This document shows, one piece after another, positions 59 to 24,000 of a DNA stretch of 24,000 bases. Under the pieces are notes generated by a model. It did no database searches. It worked only from the letters and a program-made list of their open reading frames with translations, and had not been told where the DNA came from. The stretch's first letter is position 1, and each line of letters begins with the position of its first letter. A program made the translations under genes and the position numbers. This stretch comes from Methylomagnum ishizawai (GTDB lineage: Bacteria > Pseudomonadota > Gammaproteobacteria > Methylococcales > Methylomonadaceae). Location of the stretch: positions 57,799 through 81,798 of the forward strand of contig CAMAVM010000011.1 of assembly GCA_945861705.1 (NCBI GenBank). The letters are read 5' to 3'.

Positions 59-1318
59 TCAACACTTTTTACAGTGCCGCTCAACTGCTTTTCGTGCCCT
101 GTCTATTGCACCATTGTTATCATCATGAAGTTGAGGATTGTGTCGATCATCCTTACCACCATGCCATTTTTTAGTGTTGGCATCCCTTAATGCTTTACAG
201 TCCAACGCTCTTTGTAGTTTCCATTTAGCTATTTCGCAAGGATCAGTAAGGCCTGGTGGAACTTTTTCATTACATCGATTTTTATACTGCCTATTGTTTG
301 CACGGTATTCAATATCTTTTTGTAAATCATCGTATACACCTGGGTATTCTTCACCCCAAATTTCACTAATTATTACTCCACCACCCACCACAGCCGCACA
401 GATAAGCGGGTTCACCCAACAGTAAGCTATGACGGGTTCAACCCAAGGCAATGTTTGTGCAAACAACCCAGTGGGATCGACCGCATTGACCGGATTCCCA
501 TTGACATATGCATAAAAATTAACCCCCCCCTCCAACCCAATCGGGTCCGCCGTCACATACCTCCCTAACTCCGGGTCATAATAGCGGTGCCAATTATAGT
601 ATAGCCCAGTCTCGGCATCCTCGACTTGCCCGGAGAAGCGCAGGTTGGATTCAATGGTGGGCTTGTCCTCGGTTGCAATGGGCGTGGTGATGTTTACGTT
701 CCCAAAAGCGTTGTACTGCGCCGACCAGACGACAATACCGCTGCGGTCAGTGGCCTGGATAGGCGTGCCGAGGTGGTCGTGGTGGTAATAGGCGATGGTG
801 TTTTGGCCTGCGCTGTTCTTGGTCTTGATGAAAAGGGTGGCGGTGGTGAATTCGCCGTTTGGCCTTGGGCCGTATTGGGTGGTGATGGTTGGCGCTGTGG
901 TGGCTGTTACGTTTTGCCCCTCACCCTGGCCCTCTCCCACGGGGAGAAGGGGATTGATGGCTTGGCTGGCTTCGGCAATCAGGCCTTCGTCGCTGTACAG
1001 GTAATAACTGCGCTTGGGCTGGCTTAGGGGCGCGCCGTCCTTGTTGCGGTAGGCTTCTTTCCAAATCCTTCTGTCAAAGGGGTCGTAGCCGTAGCGGGCG
1101 ATGGGGTTGTTGTCCTTATCACTGACTTGGATGAGTCGGTTTTGGCTGTCGTAGCTGTAGTGGGTGCTGTTACCGCCTTGGGTTTTTTGAGTGAGGTTGC
1201 CTGTGGGGTCGTAGCTGTAGCTGGTTTTGCCCAGCAACAAGCCTTTTTCGGTGAGGCGGTTGTTGGCATCGTACTCCCAGCTTCCTACGTTCTTGCTGTG
1301 TTCTATGCGGTTGCCCAC
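59..1318 (-). CDS. RHS-repeat protein C-terminal fragment: RHS repeats, core-end motif, and a 134-aa C-terminal toxin-like domain. It is 5'-truncated and has no ATG.
   Basis: YD/RHS repeat text is present (YSYDPTGNL, YSYDSQNRL, YGYDPFDRR). The core-end motif reads RYYDPELGRYVTADPIGLEGGVNFYAYVNGNPVNAVDPTGL, with the final L at 464-466. A divergent tail follows at 62-463. The frame is open upstream only to a TAA at 1373-1375, and the only start is a GTG at 1318. Confidence 0.8.
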   Translation of the reverse strand: MGNRIEHSKNVGSWEYDANNRLTEKGLLLGKTSYSYDPTGNLTQKTQGGNSTHYSYDSQNRLIQVSDKDNNPIARYGYDPFDRRIWKEAYRNKDGAPLSQPKRSYYLYSDEGLIAEASQAINPLLPVGEGQGEGQNVTATTAPTITTQYGPRPNGEFTTATLFIKTKNSAGQNTIAYYHHDHLGTPIQATDRSGIVVWSAQYNAFGNVNITTPIATEDKPTIESNLRFSGQVEDAETGLYYNWHRYYDPELGRYVTADPIGLEGGVNFYAYVNGNPVNAVDPTGLFAQTLPWVEPVIAYCWVNPLICAAVVGGGVIISEIWGEEYPGVYDDLQKDIEYRANNRQYKNRCNEKVPPGLTDPCEIAKWKLQRALDCKALRDANTKKWHGGKDDRHNPQLHDDNNGAIDRARKAVERHCKKC

Positions 1319-15338: not shown

Positions 15339-15524
15339 GATGATAGCGTAGATGAAATCGAAAACATTACCGAAGATTGCTGATGTTAACGACTATAAAC
15401 AAACTGGGGCTAATGTACAATTTTAATCAAAAAAGGTACTGGTTTGTAAACTAAGGAAACCCTTCGACAAGCTCATGGAAAGCTGTAAAATATTGATTTT
15501 AAATATGTATTAGCATATTGCTCA

Positions 15525-15609
15525 GTTCGTAGGATTTCAACGTGGTACCAAAGCCCATCTGTCGGTAAAGCATGAGTGACGGGGTAACATACTCCGTAGC
15601 GCGGAAGAC
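15525..15609 (+). repeat. Twin-hairpin dispersed repeat, copy A. It is degenerate and lacks the first hairpin.
   Basis: gttcgtaggatttcaacgtggtaccaaagcccatctgtcggtaaagcatgagtgacggggtaacatactccgtagcgcggaagac aligns with 17107-17189. The flank actgtaga...agagtta is also shared with copy B. Confidence 0.55.
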
Positions 15610-15645
15610 CCACTGTAGACCGTCGGGTGGAACGAAGAGTTAGAC
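15584..15645 (-). repeat. Possible degenerate terminal attC of the cassette array.
   Basis: GTTAGAC (15639-15645) abuts the stop of ORF 15640-15951, as at the other cassettes. A weak partner, ggtaac, lies at 15584-15589. Stem pairing is poor. Confidence 0.25.
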
Positions 15646-15951
15646 CTCGGGTACACGATCATAGCCTGACACGCCTAGCCACTCAATACGGCAGAAACCA
15701 GCATCGCGAAGGTATGCCACAGCCTCACGAAAGATAGGAAGACTGAACTCCTTAGGTGTGATGCCCCGAAGTAGTGAGCCTTGCTCAATATGCAGGAAGT
15801 ACACAGCATCTGGCTCTGACACGTAAGTACGGGCGATTATGGAGATTGACGCATCTGAGAAGCTGTAGAGATCGTATTCGTATCGCCATTCGTAGAGACC
15901 ATTGGTGTCAGGTTCACAGGTATCGACATAGCGAGACTTCTCGACGTGCAT
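15640..15951 (-). CDS. Hypothetical protein (cassette 10, the most distal).
   Basis: The 103-aa ORF fits exactly between attC 15956-16030 and the GTTAGAC at 15639-15645. I recognise no motif. Confidence 0.55.
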   Translation of the reverse strand: MHVEKSRYVDTCEPDTNGLYEWRYEYDLYSFSDASISIIARTYVSEPDAVYFLHIEQGSLLRGITPKEFSLPIFREAVAYLRDAGFCRIEWLGVSGYDRVPEV

Positions 15952-16550: not shown

Positions 16551-16673
16551 GCCTAACGTAAAAGTAAGGGGCGCGCCGGATGACAAAGTTTAATAAAGCC
16601 GACGAACCCAAATAAATGACCAACCTTCAAAAGCGCCTTCGTCCGGCGCGTCCCTTTGACTGGCATGTTAGGC
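16551..16673 (-). repeat. attC recombination site (123 bp).
   Basis: gcctaac-gtaaaagtaaggggcgcgccggatgac...gtccggcgcgtccctttgactggcat-gttaggc has long imperfect inverted arms. It starts 18 nt after the stop of ORF 16691-17122. Confidence 0.8.
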
Positions 16674-16690
16674 CACATAAATACTTTCCC

Positions 16691-17122
16691 TTATAGGAGT
16701 TTTAGTATGACAGATTTGTAAAGCCATATTACAGCGCTTATTAATACCAAAATTAAAGGTAGCAGTAAAATTGCATAAACCCACTTAATTTTAGTTTTTT
16801 TAGACACCCCGTTAAGAATGAACCCAATGATGAAAATGGTGATTCCAGCAGGAATTGTTAATGGTAGGCCAGAAAAGCCAAAAATTAACAATAAACCAAG
16901 TACCAATACAGTCGGTTTCTCGACCTGGACGGGAAGGTAAGTGCAACTATGGGATTGAAGGTTACAATCAAATAATATGCCAAACAGCATTCCCAGAATA
17001 AAAATGATAATTGGAAAAAGTCCAATACTTAAACTAAAGAAAAGAAGCCGGGAAACCCAGTTTGTGCTCTGAGCAGCTAACCCAGCCGGACGGGGCATGT
17101 TGCCCCGTTCGTAGGGTTTCAA
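16691..17122 (-). CDS. Small integral membrane protein (cassette 8). The start is uncertain.
   Basis: Four hydrophobic helices are visible. The first ~13 codons (about 17083-17122) are encoded by repeat copy B, so the real start may be the internal ATG at 17099 or further downstream. Confidence 0.55.
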   Translation of the reverse strand: MKPYERGNMPRPAGLAAQSTNWVSRLLFFSLSIGLFPIIIFILGMLFGILFDCNLQSHSCTYLPVQVEKPTVLVLGLLLIFGFSGLPLTIPAGITIFIIGFILNGVSKKTKIKWVYAILLLPLILVLISAVIWLYKSVILKLL

Positions 17123-17190
17123 CGTGGTTCAAAAACGCCACCGTCGGCAAAACGTAAGTGACGGGGTACATACCCCGTCACGCGGAAGAG
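17083..17190 (+). repeat. Twin-hairpin dispersed repeat, copy B, the most complete copy.
   Basis: Hairpin 1 is cggacggggca-tgt-tgccccgttcg and hairpin 2 is gtgacggggt-acat-accccgtcac. They are separated by tagggtttcaacgtggttcaaaaacgccaccgtcggcaaaacgtaa. Confidence 0.6.
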
Positions 17191-17245
17191 TACCAACACC
17201 AAATATCCAGACTGTAGATTTATAGAGTTGATAACGAATCATGTT

Positions 17246-17371
17246 GCCTAACGCAGAGCTAAGGGGCGGTTTGCCCGATGATAACGACAACGGAGACGAC
17301 AAATGACTGATAAATCACAGGATTTAAAGAACGCACTGGGGCAAAACGTCCCTTTGAGCGACATGTTAGGT
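17246..17371 (-). repeat. attC recombination site (126 bp).
   Basis: gcctaac-gcagagctaaggggcggtttgccc...ggggcaaaacgtccctttgagcgacat-gttaggt. Its first 17 nt are identical to those of attC 19636-19725. Confidence 0.75.
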
Positions 17372-17629
17372 ATGAATAATGGGGATTTGAACACACCATT
17401 AAAAATTAACAACATAAAAAATTACCAAACCAGAATTAGATGTGCCCGCGAAGATTTGATGTTGGCAAAAGAAAGACACGGCGAAAACTCCGATGAATAT
17501 AAAAAGCAACTGGAACGTTCATTTTCATTTATAAGGGGAATATTTGTTGAAATTCTCTGTGTTTCTGAGACCTGTTTCAATAACCTTCTTTTTGATAACA
17601 AGAACCAAACCACTCAAATTGACCAATAG
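17372..17629 (+). CDS. Hypothetical protein on the strand opposite to the array. This is a doubtful call.
   Basis: The ORF is open from inside the attC. The first ATG outside the core is 17372. It lies in an AT-rich segment and overlaps the 3' end of the minus-strand ORF by 53 nt. Confidence 0.3.
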   Translation: MNNGDLNTPLKINNIKNYQTRIRCAREDLMLAKERHGENSDEYKKQLERSFSFIRGIFVEILCVSETCFNNLLFDNKNQTTQIDQ

Positions 17630-17897
17630 TTTTAAGAGCCGCATTAAACAACAACCTTTCCTCTGGGTCGCCAAGTTGAAGGTCAGTGCTGTACTCAAAC
17701 GAACAAAGGCAAGCATTTGAATCATAGAAAACATTTTTTACAAGATGATGCACATTCTCAACAGCAGCAGCCCTAGCAAACAAAATCATTTCGGCGAGTT
17801 CGTGCGCCCTACCATGCCTGGTGCATATCTCTATACCAAAGGCGGACATAGCATCAACGTTTACTTGCTGAACTTTTTCTTCAAAATAATCAATCAT
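17577..17897 (-). CDS. Hypothetical protein (cassette 7). The start is trimmed to MIDYFEEK.
   Basis: The tracked start at 17957 lies inside attC 17915-17983. The ATG at 17897 lies 17 nt beyond the attC edge. Confidence 0.5.
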   Translation of the reverse strand: MIDYFEEKVQQVNVDAMSAFGIEICTRHGRAHELAEMILFARAAAVENVHHLVKNVFYDSNACLCSFEYSTDLQLGDPEERLLFNAALKTIGQFEWFGSCYQKEGY

Positions 17898-17914
17898 GGG
17901 TTTGTTCCTGTAAT

Positions 17915-17983
17915 ACCTAACGTGGAGGTCACCGGCCTTGCGCGGCTTTTCGCGCAAGGTCCGTGTGGACCGCAGGGTTAGAA
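17915..17983 (-). repeat. attC recombination site (69 bp).
   Basis: acctaac-gtggaggtcaccggccttgcgcggcttttcgcgcaaggtccgtgtggaccgcagg-gttagaa. It is very similar to attC 21788-21856. Confidence 0.8.
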
Positions 17984-17987
17984 CGCA

Positions 17988-18722
17988 TTACTTCACCGCC
18001 GGTGGTTGACCACCACGTAGGACCTGAACGGCTGGATCATTTGCAAGCACTTGCACCTCGATTCTCCGCCCAGTATTTGTTCCGAGATATGGCTTCATAG
18101 CGGTAACCATGTATGGAACGACAAGCCGAAGATCACCGCTTGAACCAGTGCTCACAACACTGGTCTTCCATACCTGTGTCATTTTCTTTTCCTTTATATA
18201 GGTCGGCACGTCGTAAGCGTCCAGATATAGAAATCTGGAGTACACCGTATCTGCTCCGACATGCGTTGTTGACCCTGTGACGCCGTAAGTTGGCGTGTAT
18301 GTGGTGGTGCCGGAGTAAGTGGCCATGCCCCCATAGGAAGACACTGTCCCGTAGGTGTTTGACGAGGACACGCCCGTTTGTCCCCAAGTAGGAAGTGAAT
18401 ACGTGTATTGATAGGTTTGGGGATCGCCTATCGCGTAGGCTAGAAAAATCGCTACGTCTGCATCTTGCAACGCCGCGGCCTTGACGAATCCCTTCTCGGA
18501 CAAGACCTTTTCTACGTAAGCCGCGAATTCTTGAAACTGTAGATCGCCAGCCTCGACTCCCTTTCCGCCGGGCAATAGGACGTACCGCTTCTTAGCGACT
18601 GCGTCAGCTTGGGCAAGCGAATCAACGTTCGACAATAACCGGGTTGGCTGCATGCCGGCGCAACCCGACAGAAAGGCGACCCCCATAAGCAGCGATGCCA
18701 AAAAAATGTTTTTGAGACGCAT
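17988..18722 (-). CDS. Lipoprotein (cassette 6), possibly DUF4136-like, with an S/T/G/Y-rich central region.
   Basis: The signal and lipobox read MRLKNIFLASLLMGVAFLSG|C. A low-complexity stretch reads TYQYTYSLPTWGQTGVSSSNTYGTVSSYGGMATYSGTTTYTPTYGVTGSTT. Confidence 0.8.
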   Translation of the reverse strand: MRLKNIFLASLLMGVAFLSGCAGMQPTRLLSNVDSLAQADAVAKKRYVLLPGGKGVEAGDLQFQEFAAYVEKVLSEKGFVKAAALQDADVAIFLAYAIGDPQTYQYTYSLPTWGQTGVSSSNTYGTVSSYGGMATYSGTTTYTPTYGVTGSTTHVGADTVYSRFLYLDAYDVPTYIKEKKMTQVWKTSVVSTGSSGDLRLVVPYMVTAMKPYLGTNTGRRIEVQVLANDPAVQVLRGGQPPAVK

Positions 18723-18750
18723 GAAGCCTTCTTTGTGCGTGGTGTATGCG

Positions 18751-18813
18751 TTCTAACGTAGAATTAACCGGCTCCGCGCTTTTGCGGAGTCCGAGTTGAA
18801 TGTCGGGTTAGGC
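18751..18813 (-). repeat. attC recombination site (63 bp).
   Basis: ttctaac-gtagaattaaccggctccgcgcttttgcggagtccgagttgaatgtcgg-gttaggc. The stop of ORF 18808-19626 lies inside the GTTAGGC core. Confidence 0.75.
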
Positions 18814-19626
18814 CACGATGCATGGTGGAACCCATTGTTCTATGCTGCTGTGACCACGCGGAAGTAAAAGCTCGATACTTCTCTTTCCCCGCTGAATTTG
18901 GCTGATTATGGGATGCTCAGGGTTATTCCGGCTCTCTGTGTCTGGGCCGTAGAAATACCCACAGCCACCATCGCGCGTAGCGCGAAATCTGTTGTTGATG
19001 CTTTCAATGACCTGCGCTGAGTCGGAAAAAACAAAAGTTCCGTAATGGACGTTCGTGCTCCAAAGAACGCCAAGACCATTTACGTCGTTATCAAATATGG
19101 CGCGAACATTCGAGATGCAGCGTTGAATCCAGTACGGCCAGAGGACGCACTCAATACCAAAGTGGCTTTCAGCTTCTGCCTTGCGAATTGACGGATGCTC
19201 AGGGCTTGAGTTGTATTGCGATGGTGCGAAATGACTCGGGCCGTGAAATTCAACGAGTTTTGAAATACCATCAACCGAAACTTTCAGATCGACGCGCCTC
19301 CTGCCCCAAGGCACCTGATGCTCTACGGTGGCGTTTGGATACGCAAGCTCTATCAATTTCACGAGGATCATTTCATCAAGGCTTACGCTAGCATTTCCGA
19401 TTTTGGCAGGTGGGGAATTGGGTATAGCACTTGCGTACCAAAGTTTTTGAAGTTCACGTTCGTCAATGGCCTCGATGCCGTTCCAGTTTTTGAACGGGAC
19501 TGATTGAACGTCACTCTCGGTTACGCCGAGAATTTCGACAACATCGCTTTTGCTCAACATTGAGCCCACGCATGAGTCGCTGCTGTGGAGTTCAAACAAG
19601 CCTTGGGGGCGACCGAGGATTCCCAT
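18808..19626 (-). CDS. Hypothetical protein with a DUF559/Vsr-like (PD-(D/E)xK-type) endonuclease motif (cassette 5).
   Basis: GRRRVDLKVSVDGISKLVEFHGPSHF resembles the D...(V/I)E(F/V)(D/H)G..H core of DUF559/Vsr-fold nucleases. The ORF fills the cassette exactly. Confidence 0.6.
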   Translation of the reverse strand: MGILGRPQGLFELHSSDSCVGSMLSKSDVVEILGVTESDVQSVPFKNWNGIEAIDERELQKLWYASAIPNSPPAKIGNASVSLDEMILVKLIELAYPNATVEHQVPWGRRRVDLKVSVDGISKLVEFHGPSHFAPSQYNSSPEHPSIRKAEAESHFGIECVLWPYWIQRCISNVRAIFDNDVNGLGVLWSTNVHYGTFVFSDSAQVIESINNRFRATRDGGCGYFYGPDTESRNNPEHPIISQIQRGKRSIELLLPRGHSSIEQWVPPCIVA

Positions 19627-19635
19627 ATGTGATTG

Positions 19636-19725
19636 GCCTAACGCAGAGCTAACCGGGCGCGCCCCGCAGGAATGAAGATGGAAACAAAGATTGATGACGC
19701 GCTCCGGTTGAGCGGAGGGTTAGGC
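19636..19725 (-). repeat. attC recombination site (90 bp).
   Basis: gcctaac-gcagagctaaccgggcgcgcc...gcgctccggttgagcggagg-gttaggc. Confidence 0.8.
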
Positions 19726-19746
19726 ATCATTTTACAGGAGATTGGC

Positions 19747-20043
19747 ATGGGTATTTATTATGTAATTGCTTGCGATGAACTAAAAGAAAAAATTGAGCCT
19801 GGGAGCATTAACAATCTGGGTATTAAACAGCGCGCAATCGCTCACCCAGATCACCCGTTTGGTCCGGTATCTGTTTTTGCTCTCGTTACAAGATGGAGAG
19901 ACAAAGCTGCGCGGGTTTTGAACGACGGCGGCGATGATCCTGGATACTTCGAGTACACAGATGTTACACAACAGATTATTGATGAGTACAACTCGGAGTA
20001 TAGGACCGCGTTGAAGTTCACCGGCGACGATGATGACGCATAA
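19747..20043 (+). CDS. Hypothetical 98-aa protein with an acidic C-terminal tail, in the opposite orientation to the array (cassette 4).
   Basis: An AGGAG RBS at 19735-19739 lies 7 nt before the ATG at 19747. The tracked start at 19672 lies inside the attC. The tail reads KFTGDDDDA. The stop overlaps the gcataac core. Confidence 0.55.
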   Translation: MGIYYVIACDELKEKIEPGSINNLGIKQRAIAHPDHPFGPVSVFALVTRWRDKAARVLNDGGDDPGYFEYTDVTQQIIDEYNSEYRTALKFTGDDDDA

Positions 20044-20169
20044 CGTTCGAGCTAAGCTGGCGACAACGGCATGGCGCGCTGGACGGCAAGCGCAAAATGG
20101 GCCGCAGGCCCAGCGCTTGATGGCCAGCGTGACATGCCGTTGGCGCTCAGCTTGAGCGAGGGGTTAGGC
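20038..20169 (-). repeat. attC recombination site (132 bp).
   Basis: gcataac-gttcgagctaagctggcgacaacggcatg...catgccgttggcgctcagcttgagcgagggg-ttaggc has long inverted arms. The tracked ORF 20052-20273 (-) lies almost entirely within it. Confidence 0.75.
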
Positions 20170-20196
20170 CTCGCTGCGCAAGTGCTTGCAAAGCGC

Positions 20197-20225
20197 TTGA
20201 CAAGCACATAGCAAGCGCTTAGAGT
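20197..20225 (+). promoter_or_regulatory. Sigma70-type promoter for the SeqA-like gene.
   Basis: TTGACA (20197-20202) is followed by a 17-nt spacer and TAGAGT (20220-20225), 46 nt upstream of the ATG. It is embedded in four AAG(T/C)GCTT repeats, which are possible operator sites. Confidence 0.5.
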
Positions 20226-20271
20226 GCTTACTACGCGCTGCTTGAGCGTGGGCGATGAGCGAGGGACAACC

Positions 20272-20769
20272 ATGAAGACTATTGATGTTGAAGACGATGT
20301 GTACCACTACATAGCTGCGCAAACCAAGGAGATCGGCGAGCCTGCAACAAGCATTCTTCGGAGGCTGCTAGGCGTGCCTACCAGTGCCCAACCCGCCCAA
20401 CCTAAAGCAGCGATGGTAGCGGCGCAACTGCATGAGTTGGCATTGCTGCTTGCGCAGCCCATGTTCTCTAGTTCGACGACTGCAGTGGCCCGGATGCTCC
20501 GGATCTTCAGGGAGGTTCATGCGCAGAAGAAGCAGGATTTTGCAAAGGTGCTCCAGATCCAGGGTCGCAATAGAGCTTACTTTGCAAAGAGCGAACATGA
20601 AATTTTGAAGTCAGGAAAGAGCACCCAGCCTCGCGAGATTGAAGGTACTGGATTCTGGGTAATGACGAACTCGCCGACGCAGCAAAAGCAGCAGATGGTC
20701 CGCGAAGTGCTCGAAGTGCTTGGGTACAGCCCAGCTGCCACTAAGGCGGCAGTCGCGGTGATTCAATAA
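20272..20769 (+). CDS. seqA: SeqA-like protein (cassette 3), in the opposite orientation to the array.
   Basis: The N-terminus MKTIDVEDDVYHYIAAQTKEIGEPATSILRRLL parallels E. coli SeqA [33 protein letters not shown]. The C-domain GRNRAYFAKSEHEILKSGKSTQPREIEGTGFWVMTNSPTQQK parallels [42 protein letters not shown]. The RBS gaggga lies 5 nt before the ATG at 20272. Confidence 0.8.
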   Translation: MKTIDVEDDVYHYIAAQTKEIGEPATSILRRLLGVPTSAQPAQPKAAMVAAQLHELALLLAQPMFSSSTTAVARMLRIFREVHAQKKQDFAKVLQIQGRNRAYFAKSEHEILKSGKSTQPREIEGTGFWVMTNSPTQQKQQMVREVLEVLGYSPAATKAAVAVIQ

Positions 20770-20800
20770 TCGTGGTGCCGCCAAGGCCTTGTTCTGCGAG

Positions 20801-20911
20801 GCCTAACGTTTAAGCTAATCGGCATTTTGCGGCATGCGGTATTTGGGCGAGAATGAAACGATGCCGAAATACCGCATGCCGCAAAATGTCCGGCTGAGCG
20901 AATGGTTAGCC
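20801..20911 (-). repeat. attC recombination site (111 bp).
   Basis: gcctaac-gtttaagctaatcggcattttgcggcatgcggtat...ataccgcatgccgcaaaatgtccggctgagcgaatg-gttagcc. It abuts the stop of ORF 20913-21770. Confidence 0.8.
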
Positions 20912-20912
20912 A

Positions 20913-21770
20913 TCACTGCGGCAAAATTCCGTCAACAACTTCAACCCCGAGCAAATTGCTCAGGGCCTTCAATTTTGATGGCAGATTGGATTCAAGTACC
21001 AGAATCGCTCGGGCATCGCATGTTCTAGACTGCGACAGCAGTACCGCATCAAGAATGGCTTGATATTTGACGCATTGAAATATTCCTCGAACAATATCAG
21101 GCTCGGCAGACAGTCTTGACTTTACTTCGACGGCAAACCACTGCTTAGCTAGATTGAACGAAACATCTAGTGAATCGCCGGATGGAAGCCTGAACTCTGT
21201 TGTGCCGATTGTTGAAGACGCGGGAAGCCCAACTATTTTCGGGTTCTTGGCGACGTAGTCCTTGAGTCGTTTGTGTTCAGGACTTTCACCACCGCCGAGG
21301 TTGCCTGATGCTTTGACTAGTTCTACTGCGAAATTGACTTCAGCCGGCTCGAGTTCCAAGTCTTCGAGTACACAGGCCCAGTGAGGGTATGCATAAATAT
21401 GTTGCAGCTCAGCCTGCACTATTTCTCGTCTTCTTCGCAATGGAAGCTTGGAGAAATCCTCTTTTGAGATTAGAAACCAGCCAATCCCTTCTCCCGGAAT
21501 GCCTGTCGCTTTGTTGACGACCAAGCACTGGATAGGTGGAATCTTCTCCTTCCACTTCTTTGAGAGTTGCAACATGGCTTGACCAACGCTGCCGAGCACA
21601 TAGTTGAGATTTCTGGGATTTGGCATGCCCAACTCTTCTGCCAGATCAGAGTAGAAAATTGACTTACCGGCAGTAGCTTGTCTAACCAATAGAGGTAGCG
21701 CGGCGCGAGCGCGTTCTTGATACAGCTTATCGCCAGAAATTGAGGAGGCAGTTTTGGCCGTGGTGGGCAT
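20913..21770 (-). CDS. Hypothetical two-domain protein (cassette 2): an N-terminal wHTH-like region and a C-terminal PD-(D/E)xK nuclease-like domain.
   Basis: The C-terminal half reads GGGESPEHKRLKDYVAKNPKIVGL...LPSGDSLDVSF...WFAVEVKS...IFQCVKYQ, which fits a D...(D/E)xK arrangement. The N-terminus reads IPPIQCLVVNKATGIPGEGIGWF. Confidence 0.65.
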   Translation of the reverse strand: MPTTAKTASSISGDKLYQERARAALPLLVRQATAGKSIFYSDLAEELGMPNPRNLNYVLGSVGQAMLQLSKKWKEKIPPIQCLVVNKATGIPGEGIGWFLISKEDFSKLPLRRRREIVQAELQHIYAYPHWACVLEDLELEPAEVNFAVELVKASGNLGGGESPEHKRLKDYVAKNPKIVGLPASSTIGTTEFRLPSGDSLDVSFNLAKQWFAVEVKSRLSAEPDIVRGIFQCVKYQAILDAVLLSQSRTCDARAILVLESNLPSKLKALSNLLGVEVVDGILPQ

Positions 21771-21787
21771 CGGTGACTTTCTGTGAT

Positions 21788-21856
21788 GGCTAACGTGGAG
21801 CTCAGGGGCGCTGCGCGGCTTTATCGCGCAGCGTCCCTTGGAGCGCAGGGTTAGAA
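21788..21856 (-). repeat. attC recombination site (69 bp).
   Basis: ggctaac-gtggagctcaggggcgctgcgcggctttatcgcgcagcgtcccttggagcgcagg-gttagaa. It lies 1 nt from the stop of ORF 21858-22133. Confidence 0.8.
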
Positions 21857-22260: not shown

Positions 22261-22288
22261 AATTTAGCACACCCTAAGATAAATGCAA
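22261..22288 (-). promoter_or_regulatory. Candidate cassette promoter (Pc-like) reading into the array.
   Basis: The minus strand reads TTGCAT (22288-22283), a 16-nt spacer, then TGc-TAAATT (-10 at 22266-22261, with an extended-10 TG). The -35 overlaps the ATG of the intI remnant. Confidence 0.3.
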
Positions 22289-22357
22289 TACCTTTCAGAA
22301 AATTTACCCGTACAAGCACCCAAACTGCTCGATAAAGCTAGGGGGAAAATCCATTTA
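22283..22357 (+). pseudogene. Remnant copy of the first 25 codons of intI.
   Basis: It translates as [25 protein letters not shown], against [25 protein letters not shown] at 23068-23142. That is 20/25 identical by hand alignment. After that the sequences diverge. Confidence 0.6.
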
Positions 22358-22459
22358 ACCCGTGGCGTAAAAGGGGCGATAATTGCGTTGCGCCGTATGG
22401 GTTTGAATAAAAACGGTGTGCATTGTGTACTTTTAACGCTTCACTAAGGTAACTGTAAT

Positions 22460-22696
22460 ATGAAAACATCACTGTCTGAGCGTATCACAACCAATCCTGA
22501 AATTTGTCACGGTAAACCCTGTATCCGCGGCTTGCGCTATCCTGTTGAAACCGTTCTAGAATGGTTGGGTTCAGGCATGAGTGCGGAAGAAATTCTTGAC
22601 GATTACCAAGATATTGAACACGAGGATATTCTGGCTGCCCTTAGTTTTGCATCCCGCGTGGTCAAGATTAAACGTATCGAGATGTTAGCGGCATGA
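22460..22696 (+). CDS. DUF433-family antitoxin-like protein.
   Basis: ITTNPEICHGKPCIRGLRYPVETVLEWLGSGMSAEEILDDYQDIEHEDILAAL is the typical DUF433 core. The gene has a 4-nt ATGA overlap with the next gene. Confidence 0.85.
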   Translation: MKTSLSERITTNPEICHGKPCIRGLRYPVETVLEWLGSGMSAEEILDDYQDIEHEDILAALSFASRVVKIKRIEMLAA

Positions 22697-23046
22697 ATTT
22701 TCTTGTCGATGCACATTTGCCACGTCATTTGGCTTTGCTACTGAAAGAGCATGGCTACGATGCTATTCATACTTTGGATTTGGCGGAAGGTAATCGAACG
22801 ACAGATAGCCGAATCAATGAATTATCAGTGAGTGAACAGCGCGTTGTCATCACCAAGGATGCTGATTTCGTCAATTCGTTTTTGATATTGAAACAACCTT
22901 ATAAGCTGTTGCTGGTTTCTACTGGGAATATATCCAACAAGGAGCTTATGGGGATATTTGCGAAGAACTTGCCTCAGATTATTTCGGCACTGACTATTTA
23001 TGATTATCTGGAATTGACTCGCATTTCTTTGATCGAGCATGGATAA
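22693..23046 (+). CDS. DUF5615-family (PIN-like) toxin-like protein.
   Basis: MNFLVDAHLPRHLALLLKEHGYDAIH...VVITKDADF is typical of the DUF5615 partners of DUF433. It is translationally coupled to the upstream gene. Confidence 0.8.
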   Translation: MNFLVDAHLPRHLALLLKEHGYDAIHTLDLAEGNRTTDSRINELSVSEQRVVITKDADFVNSFLILKQPYKLLLVSTGNISNKELMGIFAKNLPQIISALTIYDYLELTRISLIEHG

Positions 23047-23067
23047 CTGATGCAGACACGTGACGCA

Positions 23068-24000
23068 ATGCAATACCCTTCAGAAAATTTACTTGTGCAA
23101 GCGCCCAAGTTGCTCGATCAAGTCAGGGGAAAAATCCGTTTGAAACATTACAGTATCCGTACCGAGCAGGCGTATACGGATTGGATTAAACGTTTTATCC
23201 TGCATTTTGGCAAGCGGCACCCGCGTGATATGGGCGCGGCGGAAGTGGAGCAGTTTTTGACGCATTTGGCGGTGAATGGCAATGTCGCCGCGTCTACGCA
23301 AAATCAGGCCAGGTGCGCTTTGTTGTTCCTTTATAAGGAAGTGTTGGCGATAGAATTGCCTTGGCTGGATAATGTGGCGCAAGCCAAAACGCCTAAGCGT
23401 TTACCTGTGGTGTTGAACCGTGATGAGATTCAGGCGATTTTGTCGCGCTTGAGCGGTACGCAATGGTTGATTGCCAGCTTGCTGTACGGGACGGGAATGC
23501 GGATTATGGAATGTTTGCGCTTGCGGGTGCAGGATATTGATTTTAAACGCCGTGAGATTTTGATCCGTGACGGCAAGGGGTTTAAGGACAGGGTGACGAT
23601 GTTGCCCGTATCTTTGTCGGCAGCATTGCAAGCGCATCTCGCCAAGGTGCGGACGTTGCACGAGGGCGATCTGGCGCAGGGTTTCGGCGCGGTGTACTTG
23701 CCGTATGCCCTTGAACGCAAATATCCCAATGCGGCAAAGGAGTGGATTTGGCAGTATGTGTTTCCTGCGGCTAAAGTTTCAACTGATCCGCGTACTCAGG
23801 CGGTGCGTCGTCATCATGTGCAAGAACAGGCGATACAACGGGCGGTTAAGCAAGCGGTGCGCGATGCGGACTTAACAAAAGCAGCCACGCCGCATACGTT
23901 TCGGCATTCGTTCGCCACCCATTTGCTGGAAGGCGGTTACGATATTCGCACGGTGCAGGAGTTGCTTGGTCATGCGGATGTCAGTACGACGATGATTTAC
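23068..24000 (+). CDS. intI: Integron integrase IntI, truncated at its 3' end by the window edge. An alternative in-frame start is the ATG at 23050.
   Basis: The frame is open to the last base of the window. It is collinear with IntI1: [41 protein letters not shown]. The IntI-specific insertion is present ([21 protein letters not shown]...RRHH), as are [12 protein letters not shown] and [13 protein letters not shown]. Confidence 0.95.

Follow-up and report, generated by a model that had tools for sequence, protein, structure and literature searches.

An inverted integron cassette of Methylomagnum ishizawai encodes a SeqA-family protein behind a promoter with phased candidate operator boxes

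The 24,000-nt stretch of Methylomagnum ishizawai contig CAMAVM010000011.1 analyzed here (the window) carries an open reading frame (ORF) for a 165-residue protein of the SeqA family at 20272–20769 on the + strand (ATG start, coding sequence 20272–20766, stop codon 20767–20769), which lies within an integron cassette. The serine acetyltransferase encoded on this metagenome contig shares a 90%-identity cluster with Methyloglobulus proteins, and the host accordingly looks like a Methyloglobulus-like methanotroph (Methylococcales). The SeqA gene is part of an extensive mobile subfamily with an evolutionary course of its own, present in beta-, gamma- and zetaproteobacteria, and is not the core seqA of its host. 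Members share a TNSP motif in the loop corresponding to the DNA-contacting loop of SeqA, and within the family AAGYRCTT boxes are exclusively associated with this TNSP-loop subfamily; in the window, they are phased across the promoter of the cassette gene. According to the explanation favored here, with moderate confidence, the protein would be an autoregulated, oligomerizing DNA binder whose C-terminal domain (C-domain) has switched to AAGYRCTT as its target, or gained it as a further one, and which occludes its own promoter.

Textbooks present SeqA as a core protein of replication control that is specific to enterobacteria and vibrios and linked to Dam. The SeqA fold also circulates, outside the Dam/SeqA group, as a self-contained promoter-plus-gene module in integron cassettes, satellite-like elements and islands. 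In this mobile module, a key residue of the GATC loop is replaced and the promoter holds private phased boxes. Should the protein indeed bind these boxes, it would represent a natural re-targeting of a hemimethylation reader to a new sequence. The cassette would then also be a new kind of integron cargo and a simple system (165 residues, 60-bp operator) for the DNA choice of SeqA-type filaments, and the purpose of inverted, promoter-bearing cassettes other than toxin–antitoxin (TA) modules would become directly testable. A search of open-access papers for SeqA homologues carried by integron cassettes, phages or satellites, or acting in defense, gave no relevant result.

A SeqA-family protein from a mobile subfamily

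Both SeqA domains are recognized in the cassette protein by Pfam, the SeqA_N oligomerization domain (PF17206) on residues 1–35 (2.4e-16, 59.2 bits, cutoff 23) and the SeqA C-terminal domain (PF03925) on residues 56–156 (1.7e-29, 102.5 bits, cutoff 25.5). In a phmmer search of the PDB, the protein matches Escherichia coli SeqA (3fmt, 2.9e-25, residues 1–152) as well as Vibrio cholerae SeqA and isolated domains (1xrx at 4e-10). An AF2 model derived from 42 relatives (mean pLDDT 84.9) exhibits an N-terminal domain (N-domain) of strand-helix-helix topology, a short and disordered linker (residues ~38–51) and a C-domain which superposes on 1LRR, the complex of SeqA with hemimethylated DNA, with a root-mean-square deviation of 1.5 Å over 106 columns (TMt 0.83; Foldseek). 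Profile searches and structure prediction thereby corroborate an earlier note, made from the sequence alone, in which an N-terminal and a C-terminal segment of the protein had been described as collinear with E. coli SeqA. The identity to the latter is 33%, the linker is ~16 residues shorter, and the score against the NCBIfam SeqA equivalog NF008389 (159.1 bits) remains under the cutoff of 185. Judged by this score, the protein is a SeqA-family member and not an orthodox orthologue.

The GATC contacts of SeqA are made by R116, T117, R118, N150 and N152 (PMC6225831, PMC2691817). A N150A/N152A double mutant shows no DNA binding (PMC2691817), and N152 is present in all eight core SeqAs tabulated (PMC6225831). 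In the 3fmt alignment, the cassette protein displays GRNR in place of the E. coli GRTR (116–118), and its loop T132-N-S-P-T136 corresponds to E. coli residues 149–153, which read TNTNT. The equivalents of R116, R118 and N150 are therefore retained, while T117 is replaced by N and N152 by P. The earlier note had named both differences and had considered that they may alter sequence specificity. The true discriminator is the exchange to proline: core SeqAs have N at position 152, and the subfamily invariantly has P. RNR versus RTR means little, because position 117 varies throughout the family.

A word-indexed search returned 69 relatives with 44–95% identity, mostly on metagenome contigs of 1–5 kb, and an exhaustive search yielded 598 SeqA-family clusters at 50% identity. 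Among 217 aligned collected sequences, 80 possess a TNSP(T/N) loop. This set comprises all sequences more than ~47% identical to the query except five variants (TNSTT, TNSST, TNASN) and one fragment lacking the loop; the remaining sequences carry TNxNT, TNxDT, TNxST and similar loops. Within the subfamily, N133 and P135 are invariant. T18, I21 and A25, the residues driving SeqA oligomerization (PMC6225831, PMC2691817), are likewise kept: in 42 members A25 and R30 are invariant, and conservation of T18 and I21 reaches at least 90%. With one genome considered per species, subfamily matches were obtained in Thiobacillus, Piscinibacter, Sulfuriferula, Hydrogenophilales, a betaproteobacterial metagenome-assembled genome and Rhodanobacteraceae, and further in Halieaceae, Zetaproteobacteria, Aidingimonas, Marinobacter vulgaris, Methylophilus and Steroidobacteraceae. 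After these, the search ranks the core SeqAs of the Alteromonadales Idiomarina, Rheinheimera, Arsukibacterium and Pseudoalteromonas, at 36–45% identity. The gene is thus no displaced copy of the core gene, as both the TNSP set and the sub-cutoff equivalog score place it in a separate mobile subfamily. Comparison of the cassette gene with six relatives gave dN/dS ratios of 0.06–0.10 at dS values of 0.7–1.8, showing that it is under purifying selection.

Phased promoter boxes and their possible reader

The promoter proposed in the earlier note is found at 20197–20225 (+) as a sigma-70-type sequence, TTGACA-17-TAGAGT, which matches the consensus at 10 of 12 positions. A Shine-Dalgarno-like GAGGGA, read from the sequence, follows at 20261–20266 (+), 5 nt upstream of the ATG. 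Five AAGYRCTT-like boxes on the same strand form a proposed operator (20180–20230) with spacings of 11, 11, 11 and 10 bp. Box 1 (AAGTGCTT, 20180), box 2 (AAGCGCTT, 20191) and box 4 (AAGCGCTT, 20213) are exact copies of AAGYGCTT, while box 3 (AAGCACAT, 20202) and box 5 (GAGTGCTT, 20223) are degenerate. Together, they overlap the -35 element, the spacer, the -10 element and the transcription start of the cassette gene. A further exact copy is situated within the ORF at 20714. The four AAG(T/C)GCTT repeats that had been assigned to the promoter in the earlier note are arrived at when one 7-of-8 copy is counted with the three exact ones there. Over the whole window, AAGYGCTT occurs eight times against 2.1 expected, a number reached in one of 100 shuffles. 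GATC is absent from this promoter.

The association of the boxes with the subfamily is evident from a comparison of upstream regions. AAGYRCTT lies within 150 nt upstream of 21/22 subfamily genes and of none of 87 core seqA genes; for AAGCGCT, the respective numbers are 20/22 and 1/87. When ~140 loci are sorted by loop class, boxes are present in 24 of the 27 TNSP loci and in none of more than 110 TNxNT loci. The promoter is conserved in relatives from other hosts and accompanies the gene in every context examined. GATC is not enriched in the subfamily promoters (none in that of the window, 0 to 2 in others). That the conserved boxes are AAGYRCTT and not GATC suggests that sequence specificity has been altered or extended.

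Other groups of short SeqA-like proteins carry different repeats in their own promoters. The TNNDT group, consisting of three diverged loci (L109 from 1243, L134 from 2475, L144 from 492), shows TTGACAAACTCGTTAGACTCGTGTAAC, in which ACTCGT occurs twice at 10-bp spacing. In the TTTPT group, with two lineages (L054/L110/L112/L114/L119 and L126), AACTGTT and AACAGTG half-sites are found, and the TNADT group, with one lineage (L176–L179), contains a AACCTTTAAAAGGTT palindrome. These differences suggest a family-wide diversification of DNA specificity. They cannot be explained by the N-terminal strand, MKTIEVEDDVY, since it is nearly identical across all loop groups. Given this shared strand and the acidic character of its outward face (T3, D/E5, E7), the differing boxes are most simply read by the C-domain.

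We infer that the boxes are bound by the very protein encoded behind them, by way of its C-domain, and that it acts as a repressor. The N-domain would form dimers or filaments in the manner of SeqA, and the C-domains of a dimer with short linker would settle on neighboring AAGYRCTT boxes, which share a face of the DNA at a distance of one helical turn. The combination of a short linker with 10–11-bp box spacing matches the behavior of an E. coli SeqA without residues 41–59 (162 residues), which binds only pairs of sites at most one helical turn apart on one face (PMC2691817). Occupancy of the five boxes across the -35 element, spacer, -10 element and start site would switch the promoter off. 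The resulting negative autoregulation would keep expression low and independent of both the integron promoter Pc and the position of the cassette in the array. Expression from a promoter of its own also accounts for the inverted orientation, which the cassette not only tolerates but usually shows.

Several points weigh against this explanation. The evidence, consistent as it is internally, is wholly computational. To our knowledge, the C-domain of SeqA has been described only as a reader of hemimethylated GATC, so that recognition of an unmethylated 8-mer would be without precedent. Since the 8-mer is near-palindromic, a symmetric dimer of another regulator would fit it equally well, and the conservation of the promoter in part reflects common descent of a gene-plus-promoter unit. 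The exact motif is lacking in 3/27 TNSP loci. Few cases are available for comparison in the groups with other loops (three independent loci for the first, two lineages for the second, one for the third). No second box cluster that would indicate a target was detected within 10–20 kb of any locus, so the boxes cluster solely at the gene's own promoter, and the subfamily alignment gave no matches in PHROGs, PADLOC-DB 2.0 (E <= 0.01) or IMG/VR. A search of IMG/VR for phage targets with three phased boxes returned a single hit, a coding repeat (KALKALKALKA), which was discarded as irrelevant.

An orthodox SeqA would bind hemimethylated GATC and could sequester replicating Dam-methylated foreign DNA as a defense against phages or plasmids, or modulate host replication, with the AAGYRCTT boxes being read by something else or representing mere promoter architecture. 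Such a role would be compatible with the retention of both domains, the oligomerization residues and the equivalents of R116, R118 and N150, and with the superposition of the modelled C-domain on the SeqA–DNA complex; moreover, integron cassettes are known to encode phage defense (bioRxiv 10.1101/2024.07.02.601719; PMC12614218), and the contexts of the relatives are typical of defense genes. It is nonetheless unlikely, considering that N152, one of the two key loop residues together with N150, is proline throughout the subfamily, that the equivalog cutoff is not reached, that the boxes are non-GATC and GATC is not enriched in the promoters, and that PADLOC and PHROG gave no matches. The hosts are, in addition, mostly taxa outside the Dam/SeqA/MutH group. 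GATC depletion, taken as a proxy for the Dam or restriction status of the host, is uninformative, as the count does not deviate significantly from expectation (49 observed, 60.8 ± 7.2 expected). Less probable still is a plain, small autoregulated transcription factor, comparable to an orphan antitoxin, in which the SeqA scaffold would serve as a sequence-specific repressor of a few promoters of the host or the element and have no role in sequestration, filaments or defense. The conserved operator-like boxes would fit such a repressor, cassettes that are inverted and bring their own promoter are as a rule TA modules under autoregulation, and one distant SeqA-like gene is followed after 10 nt by a HicB-like antitoxin ORF. 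A simple repressor would, however, not need the strictly conserved filament residues T18, I21 and A25 (PMC6225831), the 763-bp cassette has no room for a toxin partner, and other box clusters are missing within 10–20 kb of any locus.

It is very improbable that the boxes are bound by the N-domain in the manner of a ribbon-helix-helix protein and that the C-domain serves a different purpose, for example the reading of methylated DNA. The strand-helix-helix topology of the N-domain is reminiscent of ribbon-helix-helix repressors, which bind phased or palindromic repeats, and the cassette protein has a weak sequence match (E = 0.81) to the regulator AvtR (4hv0), a ribbon-helix-helix protein. This candidate was rejected on account of the acidic exposed strand face and of the strand being nearly the same in core SeqA and in subfamilies whose boxes differ. 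In the E. coli protein, moreover, D7 and E9 are occupied by hydrogen bonds to R30 within the dimer network (PMC2691817). That the gene is the core seqA of the host or a decaying, functionless passenger can be dismissed almost entirely. In favor of this reading, it is the sole SeqA-family gene visible on the 110-kb contig region examined, but it sits between attCs as the third cassette from intI, and the same cassette occurs in unrelated hosts. Its local GC content is 55% against 43–49% across most of the flanking chromosome, and the dN/dS values exclude decay.

The autoregulated C-domain binder can be placed in a wider frame, which is possible but doubtful. The mobile SeqA scaffold would comprise autoregulated, filament-forming binders with diversified loops (TNSPT with AAGYRCTT, TNNDT with ACTCGT, TTTPT with AACAGT) which coat or sequester DNA bearing phased cognate boxes. 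This would be a new, methylation-independent or differently methyl-dependent means of sequestration, serving defense or competition between mobile elements and conveyed by integron cassettes and phage satellites.

The cassette, its array and the contexts of relatives

The cassette array extends over 16551–21856 and contains eight co-oriented attCs (16551–16673, 17246–17371, 17915–17983, 18751–18813, 19636–19725, 20038–20169, 20801–20911 and 21788–21856) whose hairpins carry RYYYAAC and GTTRRRY ends. A strand-specific covariance model built from these sites (R1, which is narrow, being trained on this array only) scores 8/8 on the + strand and none on the - strand. In each attC, the 3′ arm on the + strand has an extrahelical G in the L box; in 20038–20169, for instance, GCT-AAGCTG pairs with CAGCTT-G-AGC. 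Structural work on V. cholerae repeats and IntI has established that an extrahelical G in this arm marks the bottom strand of an attC, and the + strand is therefore the bottom strand. The integron integrase gene intI starts at 23050 on the + strand and runs off the window at 24000 after 317 codons; on the source contig, it is complete and encodes 335 residues. Its product contains Phage_integrase and SAM_4 domains and reaches 458 bits against TIGR02249 (cutoff 265). From the attC strand and the position of intI on the + strand, it follows that the array reads on the - strand and that the SeqA gene is inverted. The order is thus an array of - strand cassettes followed by attI and by intI, the latter on the + strand, in agreement with the earlier description of a mobile cassette gene on the strand opposite to Pc.

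The SeqA cassette is the third from the integrase and contains one gene, its own promoter and its own attC only. This attC (20038–20169, array strand -, bottom strand on +; 132 nt, -82 kcal/mol, 39.3 bits on the + strand only) lies upstream of the promoter in gene orientation, and its gene-proximal arm is conserved with the gene across other hosts. The attC of the preceding cassette (20801–20911, -, 44.5 bits; ORF 20913–21770) forms the attI-proximal boundary. In array orientation, the cassette measures 763 bp (20043–20805, -), from TTAGGCCTCGC at 20806/20805 to the G of GTTATGC at ~20043. Both crossover points are approximate, as they were placed by the G/TT rule, the established rule for attC crossover. 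The cassette ends form a 26-nt inverted repeat (20163–20188/20782–20807) that lengthens the attC stem in the circular form, matching the expectation for an intact cassette.

The same unit recurs in further hosts and their arrays. The Piscinibacter gene (L011) has a complete attC on either side, both on its own strand, and is thus an inverted cassette, and the Sulfuriferula gene (L001) lies beside four attCs of its own strand, within an array whose polarity is the same, both according to R2, a broader covariance model which misses some evident attCs. L089, L095, L020 and, weakly, L010 share the inverted arrangement; the attC beside the L020 gene was missed by R2, and its orientation was read by hand from the extrahelical G. 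By contrast, the attCs of L097 and L039, which encode distant members (~41–44% identity), have opposite polarity, and these genes are forward cassettes. Outside integrons, members with 61% identity are located between the large terminase and capsid genes of small integrase-bearing elements, and the Rhodanobacteraceae copy lies in an island between uvrD and a patatin/WYL pair. Taken together, the inverted cassettes, satellites and patatin/WYL island suggest a role in conflicts of mobile elements and phages through DNA occupancy or sequestration.

The Thiobacillus/Hydrogenophilales copies (L009 200–444, L010 2260–2504, L016 120–365) have only the gene-proximal attC arm left. Their GTTAGGC core is mutated or deleted and the downstream GCCTAAC is replaced, and they appear to be fossil cassettes fixed outside a functional array. 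The small elements (L006 590–8988, L007 1012–13447, L174, L175) share the order AlpA, DUF5906 primase, resolvase, a 145–156-residue protein, large terminase, the SeqA-like gene with its own boxed promoter, a 263-residue protein and an HK97-type capsid protein. They look like capsid-encoding phage satellites and were not found in a scan of IMG/VR. In L180 (1020–1745), a SeqA-like gene with a TNAST loop is followed 10 nt downstream by a 68-residue ORF with a HicB-like antitoxin fold, and the two possibly form a two-gene module.

Within the window, the 5′ untranslated region of the cassette gene includes a segment, CGCGCTGCTTGAGCGTGGG (20234–20252), which resembles the right arm of the array attCs (compare 20144–20162 and 19700–19718). 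It is kept in most close relatives, deleted in Piscinibacter, and may be an attC relic. A hairpin at 20226–20275 was rejected as a real structure (z = -1.2, not significant), and an Rfam scan of the window returned no family matches. The neighboring cassette encodes a second inverted ORF on the + strand (19672–20043; 121–123 residues with an acidic DDDDA C-terminus) without matches in Pfam, PHROG or PADLOC. It begins within attC 19636–19725 and ends with a TAA codon inside the R box of attC 20038–20169; three other samples contain the same ORF call. A segment of 74–96 nt at the distal array end is duplicated with ~80% identity (15513–15608 and 17095–17189), one copy overlapping the start of a 143-residue ORF (16691–17122) and the other having no ORF. 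This suggests a truncated duplicate cassette beside a last, weak attC-like site at ~15619–15648.

Between the first cassette/attI region and intI lies a TA-like pair consisting of a DUF433 gene (22460–22696) and a DUF5615/PIN-like gene (22693–23046). Direct repeats of 75 nt with 84% identity (22282–22356/23067–23141) bracket the pair and duplicate the 5′ end of intI, so that the region 22282–23141 looks like an insertion at or next to the beginning of the integrase gene. Unrelated to the integron is the C-terminal region of an RHS-repeat protein encoded at the far end of the window (59–1318, -; RHS_repeat and RHS core).

Comparison with known systems

A typical integron cassette is a promoterless ORF co-oriented with Pc, although this is not obligatory, whereas the SeqA gene lies on the opposite strand with its own promoter. 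In this, it resembles the inverted TA cassettes of sedentary chromosomal integrons, with which it shares the orientation relative to Pc, an own promoter, operator-like repeats, expression independent of array position and an N-terminal strand-helix-helix module. It differs from them in being a single gene without toxin partner and in using a SeqA C-domain as DNA-binding module. In fact, no toxin, TA or defense family was detected in the cassette with Pfam and PADLOC-DB, and one ORF occupies its 763 bp. With phage-defense integron cassettes (bioRxiv 10.1101/2024.07.02.601719) it has in common that it is compact and of unassigned function, with relatives in defense-rich satellites and the patatin/WYL island. 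Unlike these, it has no homology to any PADLOC model, and a SeqA domain is not among the systems in the literature searched.

The core SeqAs of E. coli and V. cholerae (1XRX, 1LRR, 3FMT, 3SK7) share with the cassette protein the two-domain architecture and the fold, the T18, I21, A25 and R30 network and the equivalents of R116, R118 and N150; for both, pairs of sites on one helix face would be the expected target. The cassette protein departs from them in overall identity, equivalog score, linker length and the exchange of N152 for proline, and its gene departs from theirs in its location on mobile elements, in its occurrence in taxa outside the Dam/SeqA group and in an own promoter with phased AAGYRCTT boxes, found at none of the 87 core genes. 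A further counterpart is the engineered SeqA without residues 41–59 (3FMT; Chung et al., 2009, PMC2691817), which is of nearly equal size (162 versus 165 residues) and has a linker of similar length. While it is a laboratory deletion of a core protein and still reads hemimethylated GATC, its restriction to site pairs within one turn fits the 10–11-bp box spacing of the cassette promoter.

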